64,000 bases of DNA, taken from an uncultured Acidobacteriota bacterium. GTDB taxonomy: Bacteria; Acidobacteriota; Thermoanaerobaculia; Multivoradales; SZUA-115. The stretch spans positions 320,001-384,000 of the forward strand of contig CAWDVR010000001.1 of NCBI GenBank assembly GCA_963805975.1, in the 5' to 3' direction. Below, in pieces: positions 639 to 17,235 of this stretch. The notes below the pieces were generated by a model. That model was not told the origin of the DNA, made no database searches, and saw only the letters and a list, made by a program, of their open reading frames with translations. Position 1 is the stretch's first letter. The number at the start of each line of letters is the position of its first letter. The position numbers and the translations under genes were made by a program.

Positions 639-723
639 CACTGGGCAGCCTGGGATGGGCGGCTATACTCCTCGCACTCTCCGTCATTGCCCTGACGCCG
701 ACGAGTGAGAAAGGCACCCTGGG

Positions 724-2238
724 ATGACTGCCGCATCGAGTTCGCTCCCACCTACCGAAACCCGTGCCGCGACCGGCATCGCCGGCCTGGACGACATCCT
801 GGGCGGCGGGTTCACGCCGCACCGCCTGTACCTGGTCGAAGGCGTGCCCGGCTCCGGCAAGACCACCTGGCGCTGCAGTTCCTGCTCGAGGGCGCGCGGC
901 GCGGCGAGCCGGTCCTGTACGTCACGCTCTCGGAGACCGAAGAGGAGCTGCGCGCGGTGGCCGCGTCCCACGGCTGGTCGCTCGACGGGATCACCATCCG
1001 CGAGCTGGTCCCCGGCGAAGACAGCCTGCGGCCGGACGACCAGTACACCATGTTCCACCCCTCGGAGGTGGAGCTGAGCGAGACGACGAAGACGATCCTG
1101 GCGGACGTGGAGCGGATCAAGCCGGCGCGCGTGGTGTTCGATTCGCTCTCGGAGCTGCGGCTCCTGGCGGGCAACCCGCTCCGCTACCGCCGGCAGATCC
1201 TCGCCCTGAAGCAGTTCTTCACCGGCCGGAGCTGCACCGTGCTGCTCCTGGACGACCTGACCAGCGCCCACCACGACCTCCAGGTCCAGAGCATCGCGCA
1301 CGGCGTGATGCGGCTGGAGCAGTTGCATCCCGAGTACGGGTCGGAGCGGCGGCGGCTGATCGTGCTCAAGTACCGCGGCGTCCGCTTCCGGGGCGGGTAT
1401 CACGACTTCATCATCCGACGAGGGGGCCTCGAGGTCTATCCGCGCCTGGTCGCCAGCGAGCACCGTCCGACCGCGACATGCCGAGAAGCTCGCCAGCGGC
1501 ATCGCCGAGATGGACACCCTGCTCGGCGGCGGCATCGAACGGGGGACCAGCACGCTGATCGTCGGCGCGGCGGGGACCGGAAAGTCGTCGCTGGCCGCGC
1601 AGTTCGTGGCCGCGGCGGCCGCACGCGGCCAGAACGCGGCCCTGTTCATCTTCGACGAGAGCCTCAACACGCTGCTCACCCGCTGCACCGGGCTGGGGAT
1701 CGACCTGCGAAGACACCTGGACGAAGGCCGCGTGACCGTGCAGCAGGTGGATCCCGCCGAGCTGTCGCCGGGCGAGTTCGCCCACGCCATCCGCCGGGCC
1801 GTCGAGCAGCAAGGCGCCTCCGTCGTGGTCATCGACAGCTTGAACGGCTACCTCAACGCCATGCCCGGGCGAGCGCTTCCTGATCATCCAGTTGCACGAG
1901 CTCTTGACCTACCTGGGGCAGGCGGGCGTCGCCACGATCTGCTCATCGGCGCCCATCAAGGGCTGATCGGCGGCCAGATGATCACTCCCGTGGACGCCAG
2001 CTACCTCGCCGACGCGGTGATCCTGATGCGCTACTTCGAGACCAGGGGCGAGGTCCGCCAGGCCATCTCGGTCGTCAAGAAGCGCGGCGGCGCGCACGAG
2101 CGGACCATCCGGGAGTTTCGCCTGGACAGCGGCGGCATCAGCGTGGGTCCGCCCCTGCGGGACTTCCGCGGCGTGCTGACCGGGGTGCCGATCTTCGAGG
2201 GCGGGGGCGATCCTCTGCACGAAGGGAAAGCCTCGTGA
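724..2238 (+). CDS. kaiC: KaiC-like double-domain RecA/RAD55-family ATPase (frameshifted in this sequence; probable assembly indels or pseudogene)
   Basis: Pieces in three frames: [13 protein letters not shown]...[10 protein letters not shown] (Walker A), [13 protein letters not shown]; second domain [17 protein letters not shown]...[29 protein letters not shown]. Indels near 866, 1481, 1868 and 1939. A TATACT -10-like hexamer lies at 664-669. Confidence 0.85.
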
Positions 2239-3827
2239 CGGATGCCGCCCCCGAGAGCCTCGAGCTGACCGTAGTCATGCTGGCCCCGACGAGCAAGGAC
2301 GCGGCCTTGACCCAGTCGGTGCTCGGCCGGGCCGGGGTCGCGTGCGTTTGCTGCGCCGATCTGGATCAGCTCTGTGAGAGGTTGGAGGCCGGCGCAGGCG
2401 CCGTGCTGCTGCCGGAAGAGGCGGTCGTGCAGAGCCGGAACGATTGCCTGGTCGAATGGCTGGCCCGGCAGCCCCCGTGGTCGGATCTGCCGGTGCTCGT
2501 GCTGGCCCGGCCGGGGGCCGACTCCGCGGCCCTGGCGCAGGCCATGGACCTGTTGGGCAACGTCACGGTGCTGGAGCGGCCGATGCGGGTGGCGGCGCTG
2601 GTGAGCGCGGTCCGGACGGCCCTGCGAGCCCGGCAGCGGCAGTACCAGATCCGCGAGCACCTCGCCCAGCGTGAGCAGTCCGAGGCCGAGCTGCGGATGA
2701 ACGACCGCCGCAAGGACGAGTTCCTGGCCGTCCTCGCCCACGAGCTGCGAAACCCGCTGGCGCCGATTCGCAATTCCTTGCACATCCTGCGGCTGACCGG
2801 CCAGCAGGACCCGACCGCCGAGCGCGTCGGCGAAATGATGGAGCGGCAGGTCAACCACATGGTCCGCCTGGTGGACGACCTGATGGAAGTCTCGCGCATC
2901 ACCCGGGGCAAGATCGAGCTGCACAAGGAACGGGTCGACGTCGCCGCCGTCGTGCGCAGCGCGGTGGAGACGAGCCGGCCGCTCATCGAGGCCGCCGGCC
3001 ATCAGTTGACCCTCGAGGTTCCCGCCGCCCCGCTCATCCTCGAAGCCGACCCCGTCCGCCTCGCCCAGGTTCTCGCCAACCTCTTGAACAACGCGGCGAA
3101 GTACACCGAAGCCGGCGGGCAGATCTGGCTCGCGGTTCGGCAAGAGGACGAACGGGTGGCGATCTCGGTGCGCGACACGGGCACGGGCATTCCGTCCGAC
3201 ATGCTGCCCCGGGTGTTCGAGCTGTTCACGCAGATCGATCGTCACGCCGACCGCGCACAGGGTGGTCTCGGCATCGGTCTGACGCTGGTCAAGAGCCTGG
3301 TCGAGATGCACGGCGGCAGCGTCACGGCGGAGAGCGACGGGCCCGGGCGCGGCAGCGAGTTCGTGGTCCGTCTCTCCCTGGCTGCAACCCGGCCGGTCGG
3401 GGAGCCTGCGGGGACCGCGGACCGCCCGACGGCCGTGCTCGCGCTGCGCCGCGTCCTGGTGGTCGACGACAACCAAGACGCGGCCGAGAGCCTGGGCATG
3501 CTCCTCAAGCTGCTCGGCGCCGACGCTCACGTCGTCTACAGCGGCACCGACGCGCTCGAGGCGCTCGCGACCTACGAGCCGGCGGTGGTGCTGCTGGACA
3601 TCGGCATGCCGGGCATGAATGGCCACGAGGTGGCCCGCCGGATCCGGCAACGACCCGAGCTCCAGGATCTGACGCTCATCGCGCTGACCGGGTGGGGACA
3701 AGAGGAAGACCGCCGCCGCTCCCGAGCGGCGGGGTTCGACTATCACCTGGTCAAACCCGTGGACGTCAACGCCTTGCAGGCCCTGCTGACCTCGCTCAGC
3801 CCGCTCCAGACCGCTACCTCGCGTTGA
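2235..3827 (+). CDS. Hybrid sensor histidine kinase/response regulator (pseudo-receiver + HisKA + HATPase + REC)
   Basis: H box LAHELRNPLAPI, N box NLLNNAAKYT, DTGTGI, GGLGIGL, C-terminal VLVVDDN...LLDIGMPGMNG...HLVKP. GTGA overlap with the kaiC stop. Confidence 0.92.
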   Translation: MTDAAPESLELTVVMLAPTSKDAALTQSVLGRAGVACVCCADLDQLCERLEAGAGAVLLPEEAVVQSRNDCLVEWLARQPPWSDLPVLVLARPGADSAALAQAMDLLGNVTVLERPMRVAALVSAVRTALRARQRQYQIREHLAQREQSEAELRMNDRRKDEFLAVLAHELRNPLAPIRNSLHILRLTGQQDPTAERVGEMMERQVNHMVRLVDDLMEVSRITRGKIELHKERVDVAAVVRSAVETSRPLIEAAGHQLTLEVPAAPLILEADPVRLAQVLANLLNNAAKYTEAGGQIWLAVRQEDERVAISVRDTGTGIPSDMLPRVFELFTQIDRHADRAQGGLGIGLTLVKSLVEMHGGSVTAESDGPGRGSEFVVRLSLAATRPVGEPAGTADRPTAVLALRRVLVVDDNQDAAESLGMLLKLLGADAHVVYSGTDALEALATYEPAVVLLDIGMPGMNGHEVARRIRQRPELQDLTLIALTGWGQEEDRRRSRAAGFDYHLVKPVDVNALQALLTSLSPLQTATSR

Positions 3828-4605
3828 TCGCCTTGTCGTACTCCGCGTAGCTCACCGTAAAGTCGCGGGGGACCTTGGCGCCGGGGGCGCGGTAGCGGTT
3901 CACGTAGTCGAGGATGCCGGGGCTCGTCGTGCCCTGGCGCTTCTCGTAGTCGAGGAAGTCGGCCTGGAACCAGTCGAAGATCTTCGACAGGGTGACCGTC
4001 TTCGCCGCCGCGTCCAGCCTGCAGTTGCGCGCCTCGGCCACGAACTCCTCCATGGCGGCGTCGAGCTCGGCGTCGAGCGTCGCGGTCTCGAACGCCTTCC
4101 GAGGCAGGCGCGGGCAGCCGACCGAGGCGCAGTTGAGGGCGGCGTGGATGCGGGGGTCCGCGAATTGCCCGCGCACCACATCGTCCTCGAGCGCTTTCAG
4201 GTTCGTGGCCTCGCCGTCCACCCGGATGCCCATGCCGACGAAGAAGCTGTAGCCCGTGCCGAGCGGCGTCCACACCGTCTCCTTCTCCGGCCCGCGGGCC
4301 AGCACCCCGGCGAAGACCTGCGCGTTGTAGGCGTTCAGGTAGTAGGCGAGCCGGTCGTTGCGGGTGGGAAAGCGCGCCGGCGCGGACTTCGGGCCCACCG
4401 TCTTGATCGCCGCGAGGTAGCGGTCGAGCTCCACCCGGTCTTTGGCCAGGGCCTCGTAGCTCACCAGCCCGCGGTCGTCCACGTGCCGCGCCAGCACCGC
4501 CGTCCAATCGGCGTGCGAGAAGGGCTCGGCCGCCGCGAGATCGAGGGTGGCCAACCCGAGGAGACAGGCGAGAACGCGCCCGCCCCAGTGCATGCTTGGT
4601 TTCAC
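3814..4605 (-). CDS. DUF547 domain secreted protein
   Basis: Signal-peptide-like N-terminus; RLAYYLNAYNA, DPRIHAALNCASVGCPRL, LSKIFDWFQADF, YDKAIN motifs. GTG start at 4605 with GGGGAG RBS upstream. Confidence 0.85.
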   Translation of the reverse strand: MKPSMHWGGRVLACLLGLATLDLAAAEPFSHADWTAVLARHVDDRGLVSYEALAKDRVELDRYLAAIKTVGPKSAPARFPTRNDRLAYYLNAYNAQVFAGVLARGPEKETVWTPLGTGYSFFVGMGIRVDGEATNLKALEDDVVRGQFADPRIHAALNCASVGCPRLPRKAFETATLDAELDAAMEEFVAEARNCRLDAAAKTVTLSKIFDWFQADFLDYEKRQGTTSPGILDYVNRYRAPGAKVPRDFTVSYAEYDKAINAR

Positions 4606-4698
4606 GTCGTTCGCTCCCCGCGAGATGAAGATCGTTCCGGCGCCGGCCGAGAGCTTATCTCCTCCTCCGCCGAGGCTGGCCGGGTTACCATAGGCATT

Positions 4699-6339
4699 AT
4701 GAAGGTCGAAGAGCAGGAGACCCGCCCGCCGGCCAGGTCCGGTGCCTTGCGGCGCGCCACCGCCCTGCTTCTCCTGCTGCTCCTCGCCGTCAATGCCGCC
4801 GCGGTCTGGAACCTGGTGGCGGCGCGCCGCGGTGCCCGCCGCCTGGCGGTGGAGGACCTCGAGTGGCAGACCCGGGCCCATGCCCGCGCGCTCGAGGCCG
4901 TGCTCTCCGGCCTGCGCGGCGACCTGATCCTCCTCTCGCAGTCGCCACCCCTTGCCCAGGGGGCCGCGCCGCTCGCCACGGCCGACCCGGTGGCGCGGCG
5001 CTGGAGCCGCCTGGACATCGAAGGTACCCTGCTCCTCTTCCTGCGCGCCCACCCGGCCGTGGTCCGGCTCGAGCTCGCCGACGCCGCGGGAGAGACCTTC
5101 GCCGCCGCCGGCCGGCGGCAGGGTGCGCCGGTGCTCCTGGCCGAGCCCGCGCCGCGCGCTCCGGGGGAGGTGCTGCGGAGCATTTGGCCTCTCGGCTCGG
5201 CGGAGCCCGCCGCGGGCCGACTGGTGGCCGAGGTCGATCCCCGGCTCCTCCTGGCGAGCGCCATCCCGGGCTTCGACGAGCGCCTCCGCGTGCTGCCCGC
5301 CACGGCTCTTCCCGCCGCTGCCGCCGGCGACCTGCTGGTCGCACGCGCCCTGGTGACGGGGGACGGCTGGCAGCCGCCGGTCGCCTGGACCGTCGAGCGG
5401 CGCGAGGAGGAGAGCCGCATCGTGCAGTCGGTCGAGAGCCTCACCGGGCGCTTCGCCACCACCGTGGCGGCGAACGTCGCCGTGCTGGCGCTGACCTTCG
5501 CTCTCGGCCTCCTCGCCTTCCGCCAGGCACGGCGGGCGGCGCGCCTCGAGGCCGAGAAGGAGCAGCAGGCGCGGCTCGCGGCGCTCGAGCGCCAGGTGCT
5601 GGCGAGCGAACGGCTGGCGAGCGTCGGACGGCTGGCGGCCGGCATGGCGCACGAGATCAACAACCCTCTCGAGGGCATGTCGAACTACCTGCGGCTGCTG
5701 GAGGACGACCTCGCGGCCGGCGAGCCCTCGGCGAAGGAGCGGGAGGCCCGGGAGCTCGCGGGCAAGGTGCGCGAGGGCCTGCTGCGCATCGCCGGCATCA
5801 CCCGCCAGGTGCTGGCCTTCGCGAGCCCCGGCCAGGCAACCCACGGGCAGGGCACGGTCGGTCAGGCTCCCAAGCAGGCGGTGGAGCTCGGCGGTATCCT
5901 GGAGCACACCGTCGAGCTGCTGCGCGCCACGCCCTCGTTTCGCGGCGTCGAGATCGCCGTCTCGCCGCCCGGCGGGCCGCTCGCGGTCGCCGGCAACCCC
6001 GCAACGCTGGGCCAGCTCTTCCTCAACCTGCTGCTGAACGCCTGCCAGGCGCAGACGTCGGGCGGCGAGGTGGAGGTCGGCTGGCGGGCCCACGGCACGC
6101 GCGCCCTGGTCGAGGTGGCCGACCGCGGGCCCGGCCTGTCGGAAGAGGCGCTGGCGCACGCCTTCGAGCCCTTCTACTCGACCCGGGGCTCGAGCGGCCT
6201 CGGCCTCGCGGTGTGCAAGGGAATCGTCGAAGATCACCAGGGAGCCGTCCGCGCCGAGAACCGGCCGCAGGGCGGCGCGCTGTTCACGGTGGAGCTGCCG
6301 CTCGCCCGGGCCGGTGGCGGAGGAGAGGTGGAGGCATGA
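4699..6339 (+). CDS. Membrane sensor histidine kinase (NtrB-like)
   Basis: Two TM segments flanking a periplasmic domain; GRLAAGMAHEINNPL, QLFLNLLLNACQA, DRGPGL, FEPFYST, GLGLAV. Confidence 0.9.
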   Translation: MKVEEQETRPPARSGALRRATALLLLLLLAVNAAAVWNLVAARRGARRLAVEDLEWQTRAHARALEAVLSGLRGDLILLSQSPPLAQGAAPLATADPVARRWSRLDIEGTLLLFLRAHPAVVRLELADAAGETFAAAGRRQGAPVLLAEPAPRAPGEVLRSIWPLGSAEPAAGRLVAEVDPRLLLASAIPGFDERLRVLPATALPAAAAGDLLVARALVTGDGWQPPVAWTVERREEESRIVQSVESLTGRFATTVAANVAVLALTFALGLLAFRQARRAARLEAEKEQQARLAALERQVLASERLASVGRLAAGMAHEINNPLEGMSNYLRLLEDDLAAGEPSAKEREARELAGKVREGLLRIAGITRQVLAFASPGQATHGQGTVGQAPKQAVELGGILEHTVELLRATPSFRGVEIAVSPPGGPLAVAGNPATLGQLFLNLLLNACQAQTSGGEVEVGWRAHGTRALVEVADRGPGLSEEALAHAFEPFYSTRGSSGLGLAVCKGIVEDHQGAVRAENRPQGGALFTVELPLARAGGGGEVEA

Positions 6340-7718
6340 AGGGAACCGTCCTGATCGTCGACGACGAAGCCTATGTGCGCGACTCGCTGGCCGGCGTGCT
6401 GCGGCGGCGCGACTTCGCGGTGCGCACGGCGGCCGGCGGCGCCGAGGCGCTCGAGAGCGGCGCGCTGGCCGGCGTCGACGCGGTGATCGTCGACCTGCGG
6501 CTGGTGGGTGAGGACGGCCTCTCGCTGCTGCGCGAGATCCTCGCCCGCGAGGCGGAGATGCCGGTCATCGTCCTCACCGGCCACGGTACCGTCTCCTCGG
6601 CGGTCGACTGCATGCGGGCCGGCGCCTGCGATTACCTGCTCAAGCCGGCCGACACCGACGAGCTGGTGCTGGTGCTCGAACGGGCGCTGGCCGCCTCGCA
6701 CATGCGCCGCGAGCTCGCCTATCTGCGGGCGAGGAGCGGCGCTGGCGAGGGCGACGGCCGGCCGCTGGGCACCAGCGCCGGCTGGCGCCAGGTGCTGGAG
6801 GTGACGGCCCTCGCCGCGCCCTTCGACACCCCGGTGCTGCTGCTCGGCGAGTCCGGCACCGGCAAGGAGGTGCTCGCCCGCCACCTGCACGCGCAGTCCG
6901 CGCGCTCGCGCGCCGCGTTCGTCTCGGTCAACTGCGCGGCGATCCCCGGCGAGCTCTTCGAGAGCGAGTTCTTCGGCCACCGGCGCGGCTCCTTCACCGG
7001 CGCCGTCGCCGACCGCGAGGGCCGCTTCCGGGTGGCCCACCGCGGCACGCTGTTTCTCGACGAGATCAACTCGCTGCCGGCGGTGGGGCAGGCCAAGGTG
7101 CTGCGCGTGCTGCAGGACGGCACCTTCGAGCGGGTGGGGGACAGCCAGCCCACCACCGTCGACGTGCGGCTGATCTGCGCCAGCAACGCGGACCTCGAGG
7201 CCGAAGTGGCGGCCGGCCGCTTCCGGGCCGACCTCTTCTACCGCATCAACGTGATGACGATCTCGATCCCGCCGTTGCGCGAGCGGCCGGAGGACGTGCC
7301 GATCCTGGCCCAGGCCTTCCTGGCCGAGCTGGCGAGAAAGCTCGGCAAGCCGGTGCGCGAGCTCGATCCCGAGACCCTCGCCCTCCTCGGCTCCTACCAC
7401 TGGCCCGGCAACGTCCGCGAGCTGCGCAACGTGATCGAGCGCGGTCTCTTGCTGGAGAAGAGCGACCGCCTGACGCCGGCGAGCCTGCCGTTCCACCTCA
7501 AGCGTTCCCCGGCCGAGCGCCGGCGGGTGCCGGGGGACGGGACCGAGGACCTGAGCCTCCGCGCCCACCTGGCGGCCACCGAAGCGCGGCTCCTGGCCGA
7601 CGCCCTCGAGCGCGCCGGCGGCGTCAAGCGGGAGGCGGCTCGCCTGCTGGGAATCGACGAGCGCAACTTCGCCTACTTCCTCAAGAAGCACGATCTGATG
7701 GAGAAGAAGCGCTCATGA
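6336..7718 (+). CDS. Sigma54-dependent response regulator (NtrC family)
   Basis: REC (VLIVDDE...DLRL...KP), [37 protein letters not shown], Fis-type HTH. ATGA overlap with the kinase. Confidence 0.95.
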
Positions 7719-9472
7719 GCCGGGCGGCGAACGGCGCCGGCGTGGCGTCACCGCTTTTGGCGCTGTTGTTGGGGGCACTCTTGCTGGGGGCGGCCTGCGA
7801 GCGCGAACCGCGGCCTGAGCCTTCGCCCGTCGCCGAGGGGGCGCCGCCGGCGGCACCGGCTTTCGTCGAGGCCACGGCGGCCTCGGGCATCGTGTTCCGG
7901 CATCAGAACGCGGCCTCCTCCCGCCGGTTGCTGCCCGAGACCATGGGCGCCGGCCTCGCCTTCTTCGACGCCGACGGTGACGGTGACGCCGATCTCCTGC
8001 TGGTCCAGGGCGGCGCGCTCCCGGCCGGCGCCGAGCCTCGGCCGGTGGCGATGCTCTTCTCGAACCTGGGATCCGGGATCTTCGAGCCGGTGGATGCCGG
8101 CCTGGCCGCGGCCGGCTCCTTTGGCATGGGCGCCGCGGCCGGCGACCTCGACAACGACGGCGACGTCGACCTCTTCCTCACGGGCGTCGGGCGGCAGCTC
8201 CTGTTCGTCAACTCGGGCGACGGCCGCTTCCGGGAGGCGGGAGCCGAGCTGGGCCTCGACCGCCGCGGCTTCGGCTCGAGCGCCGCCTTCCTCGACTTCG
8301 ATCGCGACGGCTGGCTGGACCTCTTCGCCGGCCGCTACGTGACCTGGAGCGCGGAGCGAGACCTCATCTGCCGCCCCGACGGCGTGCACTCCGCCTACTG
8401 CACGCCCGAGGTCTACGCGGGCGAGAGCAATCTGCTGTTTCGGAACGTGCCGGCCGGTGGCTTGGAGGGCACCGGCGCGGCGAGCACGCCGCGCCGCCGG
8501 CTGCTCGACGTGACAGCCGCCGCCGGCCTCGCACTGCCGGATGGCAAGACGCTGGGCGTAGCCGCCGCCGATCTCGACGGCGACGGCTGGACCGACCTCG
8601 CGGTGGCCAACGACACGGCGCGCAACTTCCTGTTTCTGAACCGGCGCGACGGCCGCTTCCACGAGGTGGGGGTCGAGGCCGGCTTCGCCTACGGCGAGTC
8701 CGGCGCACCGCGCGGCGGCATGGGGATCGACGCCGCGGACGTCGACTCCGACGGCCTGCCGGACGTGGTGGTGGGCAACTTCGCGCAGGAGATGTCGGCC
8801 TTCTACCGCGCTCTCCCGGCGGGCGAGGCGGGAGGGCCGCTCTACGTCGACGATGCGGCGCAGGTGGGGCTGGGACTGCCGACGCTCATGACCCTCGCCT
8901 TCGGCGTCCTGCTCTTCGATTACGACGGCGACGGCTGGCTCGATCTGCTGCTCGCCAACGGCCATATCGAGCCCGAGATCGCCTCCTTCCGTCGCGGCCA
9001 GGAGTATGCCCAACCGGCCCAGCTCTTCCGCAACGACGGCCGCGGCGGCTTCGAGGCAGCGGGCGAGCTGGCGGGCGACCTGGCAGGGCCCTGGGTCGGG
9101 CGCGGCCTGGGGGCCGCCGACGTGGACCTCGACGGCGATCTCGACCTGGCGCTCACCGAGAACGGCGGGCCGGCGCACCTCTTCACCAACCAGGCCGCCG
9201 TGGGCTCCTGGCTGCGGCTGGAGCTCGCGAGCGCCGCGGGCGGGGCCACGCCCTACGGGACCAGGGTGCGCGTCACGGCCGCCGGCCGCACCTTCGAGCG
9301 CGAGCTCTCCGGCGGGCGCTCCTACCTCTCGGCCTCGGAGCCGGTGCTGACCCTCGGGCTGGGCGAGGCCCGGCGGGTCGACCGGCTGGAGGTGCGCTGG
9401 CCATCCGGGAAGGAGCTGGTGCTGCTGGGCCTGGAGGTGAACCGGGGGTATCGGCTGGTGGAGCCGGGCTAG
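7715..9472 (+). CDS. CRTAC1 family (FG-GAP/VCBS repeats + ASPIC/UnbV) lipoprotein
   Basis: LLGAAC lipobox; ETMGAG; repeated DxDGDGDxDL Ca-binding blades; C-terminal WLRLEL...SYLSASEPVLTLGLG...VRWPSG. Confidence 0.92.
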   Translation: MSRAANGAGVASPLLALLLGALLLGAACEREPRPEPSPVAEGAPPAAPAFVEATAASGIVFRHQNAASSRRLLPETMGAGLAFFDADGDGDADLLLVQGGALPAGAEPRPVAMLFSNLGSGIFEPVDAGLAAAGSFGMGAAAGDLDNDGDVDLFLTGVGRQLLFVNSGDGRFREAGAELGLDRRGFGSSAAFLDFDRDGWLDLFAGRYVTWSAERDLICRPDGVHSAYCTPEVYAGESNLLFRNVPAGGLEGTGAASTPRRRLLDVTAAAGLALPDGKTLGVAAADLDGDGWTDLAVANDTARNFLFLNRRDGRFHEVGVEAGFAYGESGAPRGGMGIDAADVDSDGLPDVVVGNFAQEMSAFYRALPAGEAGGPLYVDDAAQVGLGLPTLMTLAFGVLLFDYDGDGWLDLLLANGHIEPEIASFRRGQEYAQPAQLFRNDGRGGFEAAGELAGDLAGPWVGRGLGAADVDLDGDLDLALTENGGPAHLFTNQAAVGSWLRLELASAAGGATPYGTRVRVTAAGRTFERELSGGRSYLSASEPVLTLGLGEARRVDRLEVRWPSGKELVLLGLEVNRGYRLVEPG

Positions 9473-9606
9473 GCCCCTCACCCCGTCCCTCTCCCCGCAA
9501 GCGGGGCGAGGGCGCCGCCGCCCCCACCTCTTCTTCTGCTCGCGCGCGCTCTCTGCCTCTCGGACCCCCTCTCCCCGCTTGCGGGGAGAGGGCTGGGGTG
9601 AGGGGC
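9473..9606. repeat. Inverted pair of ~42-bp REP-like palindromic units between convergent genes
   Basis: GCCCCTCACCCCGTCCCTCTCCCCGCAAGCGGGGCGAGGG (from 9473) and a near-reverse-complement CCCTCTCCCCGCTTGCGGGGAGAGGGCTGGGGTGAGGGGC (to 9606). Each unit has an internal CCCCGC-AA/TT-GCGGGG hairpin. Confidence 0.8.
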
Positions 9607-9614
9607 GCTCGAGC

Positions 9615-11432
9615 CTACTTCCGCAGCGCCGCTTCCAGAGCCGCGAGGCGCGCCTCGAGATCGGCATTCTGCTCGGTGAGCGTGCGGATGGTCTGGTGCT
9701 GGTCGAGGGTGTGGAGGGTCAGCTCCTCGACTTTTTCCAGGAGCTGCATCTGGAACTGGCTGACGTTGAGGCCGTTCTTCTTGATCTCGGCCTGCGACGG
9801 CACGTTCGGCAGGTGCTTGTTCTGCTGCACGAAGGCGGCGAGCTCGTCGAGCGACATGCGCTCGTAGTCCGGCTCGAAGACGTAGTCCGGCACGTTGAGC
9901 GTGGTGCCGTCGTCGATGAACGAGCCGCCGGTGACCCGGATGCTGCCGCCGTTGACCTCGAGCCGGGAGCCTGCGGTCGGCGATGCGGTGCCGATGCCCA
10001 CCGAGCCGTCGTTCAGGATCACCATGCGGGTCTGCGGCGTGATGGTGCCGTTGGGCGTGGTCTGGAGGATGAACCGCGTGCCCTGGGCGGTGGAGGTGAA
10101 GTTCTGCTCGGCGCGCACCTCGAGGCGGGCGACGTTGTTGGCCGAGAAGTTCGTGCCGTCGTGGCCGCGGAACGAGAAGGAACCCAGGATGCTGTTCGTG
10201 GTCACCGCGTCGGGCGAGCTGGAAGTGCCGAGCGCGCGGCGCAGGAGCATGTTCGAGAACAGTGTGCCGTCGTCGCTGAACGTGGTGGCCTGGACCTGCG
10301 CGGCGGCGGCGCTCCGCACGATGTCCACCGAGGTCGCCGGCGAACCGGTGCCGAAGCCCACGTCGCCGTCGGAGGAGATGTCGACGCTCGAGGTCGGCGC
10401 ACCCGGCCGGATACGGAGCGGCAGGCGGGAGCCGCCGGTCACGTCGCGGACGAAGAAGTTAGCTTCGTTGGCGCCCACGTCCCAGGTCTGCGCCGTGAAA
10501 CCACTGCCGTTGGTCTGCTCCAGGCGCAGCGCAGGAGTGTTGCCGACGGCGACGTGCAGGTCGAGCGACCGGGTTGGCGGTGCCGATGCCGATGTCGCCG
10601 TCGGTCTCGACGACGAGCGCGTTGGCTCGCGCCGCCGCTTCGACGCTGAACAGCGGATCGTCCGCGAGCCGCCGCTGCGCGCGGTCACCGCAGTCGTCGA
10701 GGGCAGAAGCGGTTGGGACCCCCGGAGGCGGCGTCGTTGGCTCCAGCCTCCCAGTCGTTGGCGGCGAAGCCGGCGGTGCTGCTGGTGTCGTCGAACGTGA
10801 TGCGGGTGTTGTTCTCCATCAGCAGGATCGTGTGAAGTCGGAGAACGAGGGGCTGACCGGGCAGTCGAAGCCGACGCAGACGACTGTCGGTGAAGGTCGT
10901 CGCGGCGCGAGCTGGGGCTCACCGGCGAGGGCCTCGCCGGACCGGGCAGCGGGTGACTCGGGCGGCGAGGCCGCGGTGGGCTCGAGCTGGTTCTGCGGCA
11001 CGGCGAGCCGCCGAGGATCTGGAAGTGGCCCGAGCGCACCATGGGTCCGGCAGGCAGCTCGCCGCGGCGCTCCAGGTCGGCGATCACCGCGGCCTCGTCG
11101 ACGTTGCCTCGAGCCGGTGCCAGGCGCTCTTTGCCTCGGTCGAAAGGCGCGGAGCGAGCCGCAGCTCCCACGTAGGCGCCGTCCGCCAGGCGGCTGCCCG
11201 GCCGTGAAGAGATCGAAGGGATGCCTGGCCGGAGCCGAACTCGCGGCGGACGACCTGCCCGCCGGGCAGCGCCACGGTGAGCACCGCGCGCTCGTAGCTC
11301 GCCGTGACCTGCCAGTCGATGCTGTTCGCGCCGAGGCGACACTCACCAGTCGTCGTCTGCCGAGACCGCGAACGAGGTCAGGAGGCCGAGGGCGAGTCCC
11401 GAGGCCGAAGACCAGGGGAGAAGCTTGCGCAT
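9615..11432 (-). CDS. Secreted tail-fibre-like protein, paralog B (5' half heavily frameshifted; assembly error or pseudogene)
   Basis: ATG at 11432 after an AAAGGAGAA RBS (MRKLLP...). Fragments CVGFDC, ENNTRITFDDTS, ANDW lie in different frames. The intact 3' half (LDLHVAVGNTPALRLEQ...NVPDYVFEPDY...NKHLPNVPS...LLEKVEELTLH + coiled coil) is nearly identical to the adjacent paralog. Confidence 0.8.
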
Positions 11433-11535
11433 CAGCGTTCTCCTTTGGCGTGGTCGGTTCGGCGTTCTGTGCGGTCGAGATCCGGCAGGAGGCGGACGGC
11501 TGGCCGTTGCGGGCCTGGCGAGCGGTGGAAAGCCG

Positions 11536-11561
11536 CAGGGGCGCACGAGCGTGCGCCCCTG
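11536..11561 (-). terminator. Strong stem-loop between the two fibre genes (terminator/attenuator or mRNA stabiliser)
   Basis: CAGGGGCGCACG-AG-CGTGCGCCCCTG perfect inverted repeat, followed on the minus strand by only a short T run (CGGCTTTCC). Confidence 0.6.
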
Positions 11562-11583
11562 GCGGCAAGGCGGTCAGTCGGTC

Positions 11584-13356
11584 TTACGGCTGCGCTTCGA
11601 GGGCCTCGAGGCGCGCCATGAGCTTCTGGATGATCTGGTGCTGGTCGAGGGTGTGGAGGGTGAGCTCCTCGACCTTCTCCAGGAGCTGCATCTGGAACTG
11701 GCTGACGTTCAGACCGTTCTTCTTGATGTCGGCCTGGGACGGCACGTTCGGCAGGTGCTTGTTCACTTGTACGAAGGCGGCGAGCTCGTCGAGCGACATG
11801 CGCTTGTAGTCCGGCTCGAAGACGTAGTCCGGCACGTTGAGCGTGGTGCCGTCGTCGATGAACGAGCCGCCGGTGACGCGGATGCTGCCGCCGTTGACCT
11901 CGAGCCGCGAGCCGGCGGTCGGAGACGCGGTGCCGATGCCCACCGAGCCGTCGTTCTTGATCACCATGCGGGTGGAGGGCGTGGCGGAGCCGTTGGCGGT
12001 GGTCTGCAGGATGATGCGCGTGCCCTGGGCGGTGGCGGTGAAGTTCTCCTCGGCGCGCACTTCCAGGCGGGCGACGTTGTCGGTGGAGAAGGCGCTGCCG
12101 GTGTGGCCGCGAAACGAGAAGCTGCCCAGGATGCTGTTGGTGGTCACCGCCAGCGGCGCCGCGGAGGTGCCGAGGGCGCGGCGCAGGAGCATGTTCGAGA
12201 ACAGTGCGCCGTCGTTGCTGAAGGTGGTGGCCTGGACCTCCGCGGCACGGGCGCTGCGCACGATGTCCACCGACGTGTCCGGGCCCCCGGTGCCGATGCC
12301 GACGTCGCCGTCGGAGGAGATGTCGAGGCTCGAGGTCGGCGCGCCCGGCCGGATGCGGAAGGACAGGCGCGAGCCGCCGGTCACGTCGCGGACGAAGAAG
12401 TTGGCCTCGTTGGCGCCGATGTCCCAGGTCTGGGCGGTGAAGCCGCCGGTGTTGTTCTGCTCCAGGCGGATGGCCGGGGTGTTCGAGGTGTTGATGTGCA
12501 GGTCGAGCACCGGGGTCGAGGTGCGGAAGCCGATGCGGCCGATGGAGTCGGCGAAGATCGAGTTGGTCGACGCGCCGGCGGTGATGGTGAAGGGCGTGCG
12601 CGCGCCGGTCGAGTCCTCGATCGAGAACTTGCTCGAGCCACCGCCGGCCGAGTCGTTGGCGATCAGCCGCCAGTCGTTGGCGGGGAAGCCGACCTGGGTC
12701 GAGGTGTCGTCGAAGTGGATGCGGAGGTTGTTCTCCTTCAAGCGGATGGTGTCGAAGCCGAAGTTCTCGTTGTTGACGCAGTCGAGGCCGGAGCAGGTCG
12801 AGCCCTGGACGATGAGGTCGTCAGGGATCACCTGGTCGCGCACCGCGAGCGACGGGCCGCCCGGACGGGGGGTGGCGGGGGCGGCGGTGTGGTTGAGGGC
12901 CGGGCGCGGCTCGGCCTGGCCGGGGGGCACGATCGATCCGCCCTGGACCTGGAAGCTGCCGGACTGGATCATCGGGCTCGCGGGCAGCTCGCCGCGGCGC
13001 TTCATCTCGGCGATCACCGTCGCCTCGGCCGAGGTGCCGCGGGCGGCGGCGAGCTGGGCCTTGGCGTCGTTGGACAGGCGCGGCGCCAGGGTCAGCTCCC
13101 AGCGATAGCCGCCGTCCAGGCCCCGGCCGAGGTCGAACTGGATGGTCTGGCCGGCCGCGAACTCCTGGCGGGTGACCTTGCCGTCCGGGTGGGCGACGGT
13201 GAGCACGGCACGGTCATAGGCCGCCCCCACCTGCCAGTCGATGCTGCCGGAACCGAAGCTGGCGCTCGCCAGCTCCTCCTGAGCCAAAACCGTGGGCGAG
13301 GTCGCGAGGCCCAGCGGCAGCACCAGGCAGGCGACCAAGGCGAGAGTCTTCCTCAT
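11584..13356 (-). CDS. Secreted tail-fibre-like protein, paralog A, with C-terminal intramolecular-chaperone (peptidase S74)-like domain
   Basis: AAAGGAGAA RBS, MRKTLALVACLVLPLGLATSPTVLA signal peptide; DQVIPDDLIVQGSTCSGLDCVNNENFGFDTIRLKENN; repeated G(D/S)VGIGT..P beta-strand units; C-terminal VPDYVFEPDY...NKHLPNVPS...LLEKVEELTLH..Q and coiled coil. Confidence 0.85.
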   Translation of the reverse strand: MRKTLALVACLVLPLGLATSPTVLAQEELASASFGSGSIDWQVGAAYDRAVLTVAHPDGKVTRQEFAAGQTIQFDLGRGLDGGYRWELTLAPRLSNDAKAQLAAARGTSAEATVIAEMKRRGELPASPMIQSGSFQVQGGSIVPPGQAEPRPALNHTAAPATPRPGGPSLAVRDQVIPDDLIVQGSTCSGLDCVNNENFGFDTIRLKENNLRIHFDDTSTQVGFPANDWRLIANDSAGGGSSKFSIEDSTGARTPFTITAGASTNSIFADSIGRIGFRTSTPVLDLHINTSNTPAIRLEQNNTGGFTAQTWDIGANEANFFVRDVTGGSRLSFRIRPGAPTSSLDISSDGDVGIGTGGPDTSVDIVRSARAAEVQATTFSNDGALFSNMLLRRALGTSAAPLAVTTNSILGSFSFRGHTGSAFSTDNVARLEVRAEENFTATAQGTRIILQTTANGSATPSTRMVIKNDGSVGIGTASPTAGSRLEVNGGSIRVTGGSFIDDGTTLNVPDYVFEPDYKRMSLDELAAFVQVNKHLPNVPSQADIKKNGLNVSQFQMQLLEKVEELTLHTLDQHQIIQKLMARLEALEAQP

Positions 13357-13559
13357 AAATATTCTCCTTTGACAGGTGAGTGGCCGATCAATTCGACATA
13401 TCGCAAAAAGTCTCTCTCTTCCAGCGCTCAAAGAGCGCAGGTCAAGGAGGAGTGGAATTTCGGGAGTGGGGCCGCCGGGAACCGGCGTGAAAGCCTGTGA
13501 GCTCACCGCGAGCGCCGCCCAAGGCCGGACGTGCGAGCTGCCGGGAATGAAGAACTAAG

Positions 13560-13568
13560 ATCATAGCA
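13560..13568 (-). promoter_or_regulatory. Candidate extended -10 promoter (TGnTATGAT) about 200 nt upstream of fibre gene A
   Basis: Minus strand TGCTATGAT in an AT-richer intergenic stretch; no consensus -35. Confidence 0.4.
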
Positions 13569-13613
13569 CGAAAGAGCACCTGCCCATAGCTCGACACCCA
13601 GCAGGAAAAGGTG

Positions 13614-15191
13614 TCAGTCGGACTCGCGAGCTGCCTCTGCTCCTCCTCCGGCGAGCCGGCACGGTTTCTGGTTCTCGTACCAGGAGAGAGTCCCGCGGCG
13701 CCGCGCGAGCGTTACCGGGTCGCCCCCCTCGGCTCCGTCCAGTGCCTTGCGCTGCCAGACCACGGCCTCCTCGCAGCGTCCGGCCTCGGCGAGGGACATG
13801 GCCACCAGCTCGGCGCTCTCGGCCGAGGGCCGGGCGGCGAAGACGCGCTGGGCGAGATCCAGGGCGCGGGCCCCGTCGCGCAGCGCGAGGTCGGGGGAGG
13901 CGGCGAGCACGCGGGCCAGGGCGATCGCCACCAGGCCGCTCTCGGGGAGCGCTTCGAGAGCGGCTTCGAGCACGCTCTTCGCCTCGGCGTAGCGCCCGAG
14001 GCGGAGCAGGGCCTCGGCGCCGCCCAGCCGGACGCTCTCGTCCGCGGGCGCGAGCTCGAACGCCTGCCGGTAGTGCGGCAGCGCGTCCAGCGGCTGGCCG
14101 CTCCGGAGCAGCAGCTCGGCCAGCTCGCGGTGCGCCTCGGCATCGCGCGGGTTGGCCGCGAGCGCCCCTTCGAAATGGAGGCGTGCCTCCTCGGGCGCAC
14201 CGCGGCGGGCGAGCAGCACGCCCAGGTTGAAATGCGCCGAGGCCGTGGCAGGCGCGAGCTCCAGCGCGCGCCGGTACTCGGCCATGGCGCCGTCCGGATC
14301 CCCCATCTGCTCCAGCGCCGACCCCAGGTTGACGTGCGCGGCGGCGCTTGTCGGCGCGGCGGCGAGGGCCTGCCGGAACTCGGCCGCGGCGGCGGCGAAG
14401 TCGCCGGCGAGAAACGCCGTGCGGCCGCGCAGCAGGTGGACGCGCTCTCCGGCCTCGAGCTTTTCCAGCTCTTCGACCAGCGGATCCGGCACCTTGACAC
14501 CGATCGTGCCCCGCCGCTCGAGATGCTGCCGGGCGCGCTCGAGGTCGCCGGCGCCGCGGTAGGCGAGGGCCAGCGAGTAGTGGAGCGAGTCCGCCTGGGG
14601 GGCACCGGCGAGCGCCGCCTCGAAGCCCGCCACGGCGTCGGCCCAGCGGTTGGCCGAGAGCGCCACCTGGCCCAGGGCCGCCCACGCCGCCGGGGCCCGT
14701 GGGTCGAGCTCGAGCGCCAGGCGCAGCCAGGCCCTGGCCTCGTCGAGCCGGCCCTCGACGAAGCAGATCTCGCCCAGGTGGATGCGGGCCGCGAGGTTGT
14801 CCGGGGCCAGGGCGAGCGACCGCGCGAAGGCGCCGGCCGCTTCCCGCTGCCGGCCCTCGGCCAGGTGGAGCGCGCCGGCGAGGTGGGGCCAGCGCGGGTC
14901 CGCGGGAGCCAGGGCCTCGGCGTTGGCGTAGCAGGCCGCGGCCGGCTCCGAGAGCCGGTAGGCATGGTAGAGGCGGCCCATCTCGCCGAAGACCTCGGCC
15001 TTCTCGGCGGCGGCCCCGCCGTCCGCGATGACGGAGCGCAGCAGGGCCTCGGCTTCGGCGAGCTGTCCCGCCACCACCTGCTCCAGGCCGGCGAGGGTGG
15101 GGAACGGTATGGGGACGAGGGCCGGCTGGGCGAGGGCCGGCCAGCAGGTGGTGATCAGGAGCGCGGCGGCGAGGAGGCGAGCTGTGGCCAT
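13614..15191 (-). CDS. Secreted tetratricopeptide repeat protein
   Basis: Signal peptide ending ALA-Q; many TPR units (AHVNLGSALEQMG..A...YRRALELAP; AHFNLGVLLA); C-terminal ARVLAASPDLALRDGARAL. Confidence 0.9.
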   Translation of the reverse strand: MATARLLAAALLITTCWPALAQPALVPIPFPTLAGLEQVVAGQLAEAEALLRSVIADGGAAAEKAEVFGEMGRLYHAYRLSEPAAACYANAEALAPADPRWPHLAGALHLAEGRQREAAGAFARSLALAPDNLAARIHLGEICFVEGRLDEARAWLRLALELDPRAPAAWAALGQVALSANRWADAVAGFEAALAGAPQADSLHYSLALAYRGAGDLERARQHLERRGTIGVKVPDPLVEELEKLEAGERVHLLRGRTAFLAGDFAAAAAEFRQALAAAPTSAAAHVNLGSALEQMGDPDGAMAEYRRALELAPATASAHFNLGVLLARRGAPEEARLHFEGALAANPRDAEAHRELAELLLRSGQPLDALPHYRQAFELAPADESVRLGGAEALLRLGRYAEAKSVLEAALEALPESGLVAIALARVLAASPDLALRDGARALDLAQRVFAARPSAESAELVAMSLAEAGRCEEAVVWQRKALDGAEGGDPVTLARRRGTLSWYENQKPCRLAGGGAEAARESD

Positions 15192-15218
15192 GCCGCGTAG
15201 TCTAGCGGCCAGGCTTGT

Positions 15219-16901
15219 CTATCTCGATCCCGGAACCACCCAGTAGACGCCCGCGGGGAGGTCCTTCCACTGCCGGAGCGTGCTGCCAGGGCCTTCGACG
15301 CGCAGGGTGGCCGGCTCACGGCGCTCGCCCAGGCCGAAGAGCACGCGCGGGTCGCTCGCCGAGGCGTAGCTGCCGTCGGTGCGGGGTCGGCGCACCAGCG
15401 CCGGAGCGCCGGCGCGCAGCAGACGGACCGCGGTGGGGAACGGGCCGCCGGGACCGCCGGCGACCACTCCCAGCCAGCCGCGGTCCTGGCCGGCGGTGCT
15501 GGCCAGCAGGCGGGCGGGGCCGTGGTTGTGAGTGATCACGAGGTCCGTGTCGCCGTCGTTGTCGGCATCGCCGAAGGCCGTGCCGCGGCCCACCGCGGCG
15601 CCGGCGAAGGCGTCCCCGGCCCGGCCCGGCACTTCTTCGAACTTTCCTTTCCCCACGTTGCGGAAGAGCTGGTTGCGCTGGCGCAGCGGCAGGGGATCGC
15701 CGGCCCGGGCCTGCTCCTCGAGCGTGCGCACCGCACCGCTCGCGAGAAAGAGGTCGAGTCGGCCGTCCTGGTCGAAGTCCAGGAAGCCGGTGCCGAAGCC
15801 GGTCGAGCCCAGGGTGGCCGCCGCCAATCCCGCCTCGATGCGGCGGTCCTCGAACAGGCCGCCGCCCATGCTCACGTACAGGGCGTGGGTCTCGCCCTGG
15901 ATGTTGGTGACGAAGAGATCCTCGTCGCCGTCCTCGTCCACATCGCCGGCGGCGATGCCCATGCTGCCCTCGGGCCGCCCCTCGCGGTTGACGGCCAGCC
16001 CGGCGAGCAGCGCCTGGTCGTCGAAGGTGCCGTCGCCGCGGTTGAGCCAGAGCTGGTTGGGCCTGCCGTCGTTGGCGATGAGGAAGTCGACCCGGCCATC
16101 GCCGTCGAGGTCGCCGGCCAGCACCCCGAGGCCGGGCTCGGGCGCCGCGGCGATGCCGGCGCGGGTCGAGACGTCCTGGAAGCGGCCGCCGCCGAGGTTG
16201 CGGAGCAGCCGGTCGGCCACCGGCTGGAACGTGGAGGGCCCGCACCAGTCGCGGCGCGTGCTCGCAGCGTAGCAGGCGGGGTTGGCGTCGAAGGAAAACT
16301 CCACGTAGCTCACCACGTAGAGGTCGAGCCGGCCGTCGGCGTCGTAGTCCGCGAACGAGCCGGCGACCGACCAGCGGTCGTCGGAGGCCCCGCTCTCGGC
16401 GGTGCGGTCGGCGAAGGTGCCGTCCCCCCGGTTCAGGAACAGCCGGTCCGGGCCCAGGTTGGCAACGAAGAGATCGACCCAGCCGTCGCCGTCCACGTCG
16501 CCGGTCGCCACACCCATGCCGTAGCCGGTCTCGTCGAGGCCGCTCGCCGAGGTCACGTCGACGAACCGTGCCGCGAGCGTGCCGTCGGGCGCGAGCAGGA
16601 GGTCGTTGCGCAGCAGCCGGTCGCGCGGCACCTTGGCCGTGTCGGCCGGCGGCGGCAGCGGCCCGCCCTGCACCAGGTAGAGGTCGAGGTCGCCGTCGCC
16701 GTCGTAGTCCAGGAGCGCCGCTCCCGCGCCCATGATCTCGGGAAAATAGAGCTTTCCCGACATGCCGTTCGCATGCACGAAGTCGAGGCCCGAGGCGAGG
16801 GTCGCATCGGTGAAGAGCGCCGGCGGCTCCGCCGTGCAGGGCGGCCCGAGAGCGAGCGCCGGGACGAGCGTCCAGGCGATGGTTTGGCGGATTGCGGTCA
16901 G
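15219..16901 (-). CDS. CRTAC1 family (FG-GAP + ASPIC/UnbV) secreted protein
   Basis: PEIMGAG, DYDGDGDLDL repeats, GSYASASDPRVLFGLG. The frame extends upstream of the ORF-track start through a signal-peptide-like stretch to a CTG at 16901 preceded by GGGAG; the start is uncertain. Confidence 0.9.
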   Translation of the reverse strand: MTAIRQTIAWTLVPALALGPPCTAEPPALFTDATLASGLDFVHANGMSGKLYFPEIMGAGAALLDYDGDGDLDLYLVQGGPLPPPADTAKVPRDRLLRNDLLLAPDGTLAARFVDVTSASGLDETGYGMGVATGDVDGDGWVDLFVANLGPDRLFLNRGDGTFADRTAESGASDDRWSVAGSFADYDADGRLDLYVVSYVEFSFDANPACYAASTRRDWCGPSTFQPVADRLLRNLGGGRFQDVSTRAGIAAAPEPGLGVLAGDLDGDGRVDFLIANDGRPNQLWLNRGDGTFDDQALLAGLAVNREGRPEGSMGIAAGDVDEDGDEDLFVTNIQGETHALYVSMGGGLFEDRRIEAGLAAATLGSTGFGTGFLDFDQDGRLDLFLASGAVRTLEEQARAGDPLPLRQRNQLFRNVGKGKFEEVPGRAGDAFAGAAVGRGTAFGDADNDGDTDLVITHNHGPARLLASTAGQDRGWLGVVAGGPGGPFPTAVRLLRAGAPALVRRPRTDGSYASASDPRVLFGLGERREPATLRVEGPGSTLRQWKDLPAGVYWVVPGSR

Positions 16902-16966
16902 GGGAAGATCTCCCGCGAGCGCTCCTGCCGGGAGCCGGAGCGCCTGCCGAGGATAGCAGCGCCCCC

Positions 16967-16999
16967 GGCCCTGCTTGTAAAACGGGCCCTGCTTGTAAA
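16967..16999. promoter_or_regulatory. 15-bp direct repeat (GGCCCTGCTTGTAAA x2, 18-bp period) in a divergent promoter region
   Basis: Exact copies at 16967-16981 and 16985-16999. Confidence 0.55.
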
Positions 17000-17235
17000 T
17001 GAGGGCCGTCTGTGGCAGATTACGCGCCGCGAAGGCTGGGACGGCTCAGTACAACTTCGCGCTCTCCCGAGAAGCGGGTCCGCAAAGGGCCCCGGACGGT
17101 GGCCTCGCCGGCAAGGTCATCGCGCCTCCAGACTTAAGAGCCGGATCTTGAACTTGCGGTCCCGCCGCTCGTATTTCGAGTGCGCCTCCAATCTGTATGC
17201 GGGGCGACGGGCTGCGAAAGGAATGCGGACAGACG

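Follow-up and report, generated by a model that had tools for sequence, protein, structure and literature searches.

A fibre family related to Bdellovibrio MAT fibres in an uncultured Acidobacteriota bacterium, and its recurrent but optional link with CRTAC1 and TPR genes

The window analysed here is the whole 64,000-nucleotide stretch given above, from an uncultured Acidobacteriota bacterium with a genome of 5.36 Mb at roughly 70% GC. Its subject is a fibre gene, F1, which lies beside a frameshifted paralogue, F2, and close to genes for a TPR protein and for a propeller of CRTAC1 type, CRTAC1-A. F1 is a member of a large non-phage family whose shaft is like that of the Bdellovibrio MAT fibres in both sequence and fold, and the gene link between CRTAC1 and such fibres is genuine but optional. 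Our preferred reading, to which we give a probability of about 0.5, is that F1 is a MAT-related fibre, likely a trimeric surface adhesin, and that CRTAC1 and TPR form a recurrent, optional module that helps to dock or display it. The features on which this reading turns are as follows.

11584..13356, minus strand: fibre F1, 590 aa, intact (sequence, domain and fold comparison)
12922..13281, minus strand: F1 N-domain, residues 26-145 (beta-sandwich model)
12277..12837, minus strand: family-defining core of F1, residues 174-360, DQVIPDD to VGIGT (alignments, profile match)
9615..11432, minus strand: fibre F2, paralogue of F1; 3' half intact, 5' half frameshifted (frameshift-aware alignment)
13614..15191, minus strand: TPR protein, 525 aa, with signal peptide; fibre-associated subfamily, invariant C473 and C511
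15219..16901, minus strand: CRTAC1-A, FG-GAP propeller plus ASPIC/UnbV, normally TPR-paired; probable CTG start

F1 begins with a signal peptide at about residues 1-25 (N-terminal hydrophobicity 2.9 and an A-Q-E cleavage-like site, on a heuristic only; here and below, signal peptides and the lipobox were assigned from hydropathy and by eye, without a dedicated predictor). There follow an Ig/FN3-like N-domain with a helical hairpin (26-145), a Pro/Ala linker, the core (174-360), whose Cys188/Cys193 pair is invariant in family alignments, a MAT-like beta-prism unit (373-491) and a PDYVF-type S74-like end with a coiled coil (about 495-590). No family for F1 was found in NCBIfam, or in Pfam at E <= 0.01. 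Its sequence matches in the PDB are four Bdellovibrio MAT fibre constructs only, the best by phmmer being Bd1334 (E 1e-10), and a search with the core profile adds Bd2133 (8OND) at E 6e-9. By Foldseek, F1 matches the MAT fibres at E 3e-12; its beta-prism unit superposes on Bd2439 over 106 residues (VIA Z 12.6, root-mean-square deviation 1.6 A), and on Bd1334 as well, and residues 322-579 resemble the T5 fibre plus chaperone (VIA Z 10.2). The N-domain resembles the DUF3244 structure 3sd2 (VIA Z 9.9, 2.1 A over 83 residues), a type IX secretion C-terminal domain (Z 8.5) and FN3 domains (Z about 8). As a monomer, F1 was modelled by AlphaFold with mean pLDDT 73.3 and pTM 0.42, confidently in the N-domain (about 95) and weakly in the core, as expected for an intertwined trimer. 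F1 would be exported by Sec, as its signal peptide suggests, and would trimerise into an intertwined beta-prism like that of its solved homologues.

The initial annotation had presented the fibre system as undescribed, a label that fails because the main text of PMC10769870 already describes this type of fibre in Bdellovibrio. The literature searched, with most subscription journals outside its coverage, held no paper that treats the present fibre family or connects CRTAC1 with fibres. The look-alikes found in the atlas are all either unnamed or labelled as S74 clusters, and the nearest named homologues of F1 come from Thermoanaerobaculia, Acidobacteriota.

The C-terminal ends of the family are mosaic: classed by regular expression, the ends of 150 distinct fibres comprise 95 canonical S74, 21 PDYVF, 11 LEGPE, 7 CDxVF and 10 other ends, with 6 cut. 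The S74-like character first ascribed to the ends of F1 and F2 holds up in profile comparison (hhalign 96%, E 2e-9 against the family's canonical S74 ends), but neither matches Pfam S74 (PF13884), and the S-x4-K catalytic motif (SDxxxK) is absent from both, with PDYVFE at the expected place. Because the motif is missing, self-cleavage of these ends is unlikely, and the S74-like helices, which would nucleate the trimer, probably stay attached to F1. No Pfam family for a membrane anchor barrel of the YadA type, as in trimeric autotransporter adhesins, was found in F1, and its C-terminus is helical in the model. The N-domain is fused to the core in most fibres; elsewhere it is encoded by a separate small secreted gene before core-only fibres (hhalign 99.6%), whose predicted mature form then starts at DQVI. 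A short-protein search with the N-domain gave one match. In the assembled fibre, N-domain and core would lie nearest the cell as its base, with binding left to the variable units at the C-terminal end.

The fibre core was found in 64 of the 201 genomes of the class (one unpublished genome, G179, counts only in the class tallies of fibre core, sensor domain and TPR clade), in 77 of 301 genomes from the order of one Lysobacterales genome, on 9 plasmids, and in 2,000 clusters at 50% identity (E <= 1e-30). Most carriers have a single fibre gene; tandem arrays occur, and one genome has as many as 8 copies. In family f12, where 32 loci from 35 fibre-positive genomes were examined, guaA lies directly upstream of the fibre in 29 and ftsZ downstream in 26, which points to long vertical residence. 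PHROGs tail-fibre matches (E 4e-16), the broken F2 and the database label "tail fiber domain-containing protein" given to homologues might suggest that the fibre genes are left over from a prophage, a tailocin or a gene transfer agent, with the decay of F2 as a consequence. This reading is largely refuted, and we judge its chances to be very small: signal peptides reach a hydropathy score of at least 2.0 in 125 of the 150 distinct fibres, searches of 50,697 phage records and of IMG/VR gave no match to the core, it sits among stable housekeeping neighbours in a family spread through the class, and the GC content of the fibre region resembles that of the genome. No phage structural family was matched by any of 47 window ORFs (open reading frames) scanned in sets of 12 and 35, as the initial annotation had also stated, and the rest of the window holds housekeeping genes (RecA, MurB, thiolase, DEAD helicase and others). 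The proposal that the fibre is host-encoded and bears a signal peptide is thus sustained by the lack of phage matches, the vertical housekeeping contexts and the MAT homology.

Several unusual members deserve mention. G020 has tandem arrays of five fibre genes (C10:128141-136526, L044), adjoining a polysaccharide locus, and of three (170826-175262, L046). P0121, P0127, P0128, P0129, P0133 and P0159 are giants of 1,700-4,900 aa in which M10 peptidase, dockerin or Calx-beta domains accompany the fibre cores, of which each has one to three, and most have S74 domains as well; such giants are possibly self-processing polyproteins. No fibre-CRTAC1 fusion was seen among six longer homologues in what was a weak search. 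Ten homologues of great length or odd make-up were also scanned; FG-GAP repeats turned up in one of them, the giant P0129, at a distance from its fibre cores and with no ASPIC domain. P0161 (Saprospiraceae) joins a fibre core to a type IX secretion C-terminal domain, and P0125 holds a partial core within a YadA-like autotransporter, so that one type of shaft is combined with more than one export route. L160, in a record titled Patescibacteria, is near-identical to Lysobacterales loci and is probably a mis-binned contig.

Two fibre genes had been called in the window, of which F1 is intact and F2 has no open frame across 9615-11432. The 3' half of F2 is 86% identical in amino acids to F1 residues 284-579. 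Frameshift-aware alignment places seven frame breaks (against F1) or ten (against P0017), each of a single base and all between 11366 and 10566; among controls, F1 shows no frame change and only one of 40 genes of the same genome does. The 5' half of F2 is either a pseudogene or a local assembly error, and three soil DNA runs, holding small shares of the genome, gave no long contig across it.

Genes for ASPIC proteins are common, with 14 matches in the source genome, and CRTAC1-A followed by TPR is a repeated module with three copies there, so adjacency alone means little. Comparison across genomes is more telling. Of the 14 genomes other than the source that carry the TPR clade as well as a fibre, the TPR gene lies within 10 kb of the core in nine, at 24 kb in one and unlinked in four; from gene density, about 0.2 instead of nine would be expected by our own arithmetic. 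Seven of these nine loci also hold an adjacent CRTAC1-A, joined to the TPR in one 966-aa frame in G093. A TPR tree of 56 rows, built by a quick method, shows a 100% split between 23 rows labelled fibre-adjacent plus 5 others and 28 rows never adjacent, the fibre side being inflated by rows from outside the class sample, which were picked for fibre adjacency. Of the five others, L142 is mislabelled and really fibre-adjacent, and four come from fibre-bearing genomes. The window TPR groups with the fibre side; both of its paralogues group with the other. Class-wide (201 genomes), none of the fibre-less genomes among the best 30 loci carries the fibre-side type, and this subfamily has about one copy per genome; 27 of the fibre-less carriers, however, belong to one genus. 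A CRTAC1 gene is present in 18 of the best 73 GTDB fibre loci, 11 of them with type A; these 11 include seven Blastocatellia-type loci in which CRTAC1-A stands beside the fibre, divergent, with TPR seen in five.

The link extends beyond Acidobacteriota. Stretches of about 14 kb were taken from 60 of the 77 positive gammaproteobacterial genomes (two were already included elsewhere; 15 gave short contigs or weak matches), and CRTAC1 lies within about 7 kb of the fibre in 29 of these 60 loci, several of which are near-copies, against 0.75 expected; the CRTAC1-A and TPR pair occurs in five. Six of the nine plasmids, all from cultured roseobacter-type strains such as Tateyamaria omphalii DOK1-4 (pDOK1-4-5) and Roseovarius faecimaris MME-070 (pMME07001), carry a co-oriented CRTAC1-like gene 0.1-3.2 kb downstream of the fibre, which is itself preceded by the small N-domain gene; the CRTAC1-like products are about 1,000 aa long and are predicted to cross the membrane 7-9 times. 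In these CRTAC1-like proteins (L271, L273, L276-L279) an ArsP_1 permease-like membrane region precedes the propeller. Sel1-repeat genes, unrelated to the window TPR, lie upstream in three of the six. One of the loci, in Tateyamaria, adjoins type II secretion genes; two secretin genes in the source genome make type II secretion a possible export route for F1. The enrichment of CRTAC1 and TPR genes near fibres, which the initial annotation had put forward as its own test, is therefore found in Acidobacteriota, Gammaproteobacteria and Alphaproteobacteria.

A number of points weigh against the preferred reading. In f12, CRTAC1 is near the fibre in only one of 32 loci and the TPR clade occurs in none of 48 genomes. 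Because one large family thus has fibres without CRTAC1-A or a TPR of the window type, an obligatory system fails. G133, from the family of the source, has a fibre and DUF547 with no adjoining CRTAC1 or TPR, and in G015 and G113 a TPR gene is near the fibre without CRTAC1-A. Pairs of CRTAC1-A and TPR are general, most of them far from fibres and near sulfatases, TonB-like barrels and TMTC-like enzymes. The CRTAC1 genes that do occur near fibres belong to different clades in a quick tree, and their orientation to the fibre varies among divergent, convergent and co-oriented. Many gammaproteobacterial CRTAC1 proteins share an LFxDGFE-like tail with other secreted neighbours, which fits simple clustering of surface genes. 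Kinship among genomes means that the counts are not independent, and the expected counts derive from PF07593 density, the observed ones from our own profile. A glycan-gene count of 11 of 59 class loci, against 1.8% of windows in their own genomes, is partly circular, its queries having come from those loci, and is not relied upon.

The tail itself, which matched no NCBIfam model, is probably a sorting signal; its carriers are L143, L181-L197, L229 and, in the source genome, C1:683307-686597. A second CRTAC1-TPR pair of the source genome, at C1:581635-589433, is flanked by two TMTC-like membrane proteins (labelled by eye), between which a small secreted protein is also encoded.

A different account is that fibre, CRTAC1, DUF11/cadherin-like giants and glycan-modifying enzymes are independent surface components, gathered without contact in islands that serve co-regulation and co-transfer, with CRTAC1 itself acting as an adhesin or lectin displayed alongside the fibre. 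DUF11-type giants occur in 21 of the 69 loci that entered a clustering, cadherin and Big_9 adhesins occur between TPR and fibre, the LFxDGFE-like tail appears in 20 of the 60 gammaproteobacterial loci, polysaccharide export and sugar genes flank four plasmid loci, and the variable orientation of fibre and CRTAC1 agrees with it. The predicted fold of CRTAC1-A (pLDDT 93.3) points the same way: by Foldseek it is nearest murine CRTAC1 (9ETN, TM 0.71), then fungal lectins, among them the N-acetylglucosamine lectins PVL and AAL2, and integrin alpha heads. Against simple clustering, one TPR subfamily tracks the fibre and its sister subfamily never does, the sole ASPIC gene of the genome adjoins the fibre locus in G202 and G203, and CRTAC1 is often the immediate neighbour of the fibre with no intervening gene. 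The giants, shared-tail proteins and sugar genes at fibre loci keep this account a serious rival, to which we give perhaps one chance in a few.

On the docking model that we prefer, the CRTAC1 propeller, whose genomic link is observed, would be an envelope holder or scaffold for the fibre base through a putative contact, soluble and accompanied by TPR in the window bacterium and membrane-embedded in roseobacters; the TPR protein may be a periplasmic helper of CRTAC1. The initial annotation had likewise made CRTAC1 and TPR putative partners in anchoring or assembly. A bolder extension, tentative and somewhat doubtful, is that CRTAC1/ASPIC-UnbV proteins are envelope receptors for domesticated phage-type fibres across phyla, the integrin-alpha-like propeller, soluble and helped by TPR in Acidobacteriota and in some Gammaproteobacteria but membrane-embedded in roseobacters, gripping the FN3-like N-domain or the core and thereby displaying the trimer. 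Were this true, it would be the first bacterial function for the CRTAC1 family, for whose bacterial members the literature searched gave none, and would offer a possible explanation of what keeps MAT-like fibres on the cell, a matter that the main text of PMC10769870 leaves open. That one fibre family meets CRTAC1 genes of different clades ties the MAT anchoring question to that of bacterial CRTAC1 function, and the cultured, harmless marine strains with compact plasmid cassettes make the CRTAC1-fibre link directly testable.

What the fibres bind is a separate matter, and contact with other microbes, for recognition of prey or competitors as in Bdellovibrio, could be their role in place of adhesion to surfaces or in biofilms, under either model of CRTAC1. 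The MAT homology with tip swapping and the arrays of up to 8 copies would suit such a role, as would the report in the main text of PMC10769870 that MAT fibres are surface-displayed and that Bd2439 binds prey glycans. Most carriers, however, have a single copy, they include biofilm roseobacters with the fibre gene among polysaccharide genes, and no toxin or lytic gene was found among the window ORFs scanned; we consider this role improbable. Among soil and marine bacteria that are not predators, phage-type fibres emerge as frequent candidates for adhesins, mislabelled in databases as virion parts.

In the propeller genes themselves, no ATG, GTG or TTG lies 5' of the CRTAC1-A propeller; position 16901 is a CTG followed by a weak hydrophobic stretch (1.85), and it is taken as the probable start because it is the only one that would leave a signal peptide. 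The earlier statement that every non-regulatory product carries an export signal holds for F1, for TPR and for CRTAC1-B, the second propeller of the window, which has a lipobox, but that of F2 is readable only across frameshifts and that of CRTAC1-A is weak. CRTAC1-B forms its own clade in the quick CRTAC1 tree (Shimodaira-Hasegawa-like approximate likelihood ratio support 98). Selenocysteine recoding of these CRTAC1 clades was considered and rejected, no UGA falling in a conserved column: in-frame UGA occurs in none of 166 alignments to CRTAC1-A and in one of 147 to CRTAC1-B, in an overhang of the signal region.

The remaining features around the fibre genes are these.

3814..4605, minus strand: DUF547 secreted protein (Pfam)
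4699..7718, plus strand: histidine kinase (4699-6339) and sigma54-dependent NtrC-type regulator (6336-7718), neighbours
7715..9472, plus strand: CRTAC1-B lipoprotein (lipobox LGAA-C), last gene of the kinase-NtrC-CRTAC1 operon
9473..9607, no strand: inverted palindrome pair, presumably REP-like, between the convergent ends of CRTAC1-B and F2 (sequence)
11537..11560, minus strand: GC-rich hairpin in the F1/F2 gap, possible terminator or stabiliser (by eye; absent from the terminator scan)
13560..13568, minus strand: extended -10-like element TGCTATGAT in the 257-bp gap 5' of F1 (by eye, tentative)

Gene order and strands as first annotated are borne out by the ORF positions and by Pfam, which finds FG-GAP and ASPIC/UnbV in both propellers, TPR in 13614-15191, and DUF547, HisKA/HATPase and Sigma54_activat in the remaining genes. 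Translational coupling of kinase, NtrC and CRTAC1-B, likewise proposed, agrees with the ATGA overlaps between successive genes. The initial annotation had gone further and drawn the second CRTAC1, the kinase and DUF547 into the fibre system, possibly under sigma54 control; in its strongest form, the whole 3814-16901 block would be one sigma54-controlled system in which kinase and NtrC switch on the fibres and both CRTAC1 genes. The window layout does recur in one close relative, L107, the only other locus in which fibres converge on CRTAC1-B, NtrC and kinase, followed by DUF547. The kinase sensor domain, however, occurs in only four of the 201 class genomes, and in the other three (G005, G133 and G181) the operon is intact on another contig or 220 kb from the fibres. 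DUF547 is near fibres only in L107 and in G133, of the same family. No site with at most one mismatch to TGGCA-N6-TTGC was found in 3700-17300, and a looser search of six intergenic stretches reached at most 8 of 12 positions, in a consensus scan that weak sites could escape. Given an operon unlinked to fibres in all three other class genomes and no sigma54 site at that threshold, the operon looks like a separate module and a bystander to the fibres; it and DUF547 would be local neighbours, sigma54 control lacks the support of a -24/-12 site in that scan, and the single-system view is very unlikely. Regulators can act at a distance, and NtrC may control the fibres in trans.

No full promoter ahead of F1 came out of a sigma70 scan; tentatively, the extended -10-like element may give this gene a promoter of its own. 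The palindrome region has high read depth, drawn from many contigs of this bin. On the minus strand 5' of CRTAC1-A, an 18-bp tandem duplication (16967-16999), with one copy fewer in one close-relative soil contig, represents either a repeated binding site or a difference of assembly or strain. Elsewhere in the window, a KaiC-like ATPase gene split over frames (705-2238, plus strand) is followed by a hybrid histidine kinase (2235-3827), and two minus-strand ORFs, 22870-23394 and 29221-32094, have no Pfam family at E 1e-8, the former showing by eye a deaminase-like HAE...CxxC pattern.

Of known systems, the MAT fibres are closest; the reference structures are Bd1334 (8OML), Bd2439 (8OL4), Bd2133 (8OND) and Bd3182 (8OJN), and what follows is limited to the main text and text supplements of PMC10769870. 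MAT fibres are described there as signal-peptide-bearing trimers with swapped tips, 13 of 21 having S74 ends with SDxxxK. Shared with the F1 family are a chromosomal gene with a signal peptide, a conserved N-terminal and a variable C-terminal part, homologous beta-prism units with VGIGT..P capping loops, and S74 and non-S74 ends within one family. F1-type fibres differ in length (about 400-600 aa against 626-1151), in copy number (usually 1-2 against 21), in having a DQVIPDD core of their own and in hosts that are not known predators. Compared by description only, the 120-aa beta-sandwich after the F1 signal peptide corresponds in place to a conserved, beta-rich MAT domain of about 130 aa, but the Ig/FN3-like N-domain of the F1 family, which some genomes encode as a gene of its own, has PDB analogues; for the MAT N-domain, a lack of PDB homologues is reported. 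The MAT main text names no CRTAC1 or TPR gene neighbours, and its text supplements hold no mention of Acidobacter, Thermoanaerobac, Xanthomonad, FG-GAP or CRTAC.

Phage fibres with S74 chaperones (T5 pb1, 4UW8; the K1F endosialidase) likewise end in a helical, chaperone-like region behind a beta-helix shaft; F1 differs in its signal peptide and the lack of a virion context, and both F1 and F2 in lacking SDxxxK. The TPR gene recalls PrsT of the PEP-CTERM system (TIGR02917), also an exported TPR solenoid near surface-protein and polysaccharide genes, and TIGR02917 is its best NCBIfam match (E 4e-35); membership was rejected at 120.9 bits against a cut-off of 312, and no exosortase was seen in the window. 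Both window propellers share with the CRTAC1/ASPIC-UnbV family an FG-GAP propeller and C-terminal ASPIC (profile E 7e-28), the fold having been compared for CRTAC1-A, which differs from murine CRTAC1 in being bacterial and paired with a dedicated TPR gene. Bacterial integrin-type propellers are the subject of PMC3192720. Beside these systems, what is new here is the set of linkage counts in three lineages, the TPR subfamily that tracks the fibre, the probably non-cleaving end, the exclusion of the regulator and the cultured strains suited to a test.

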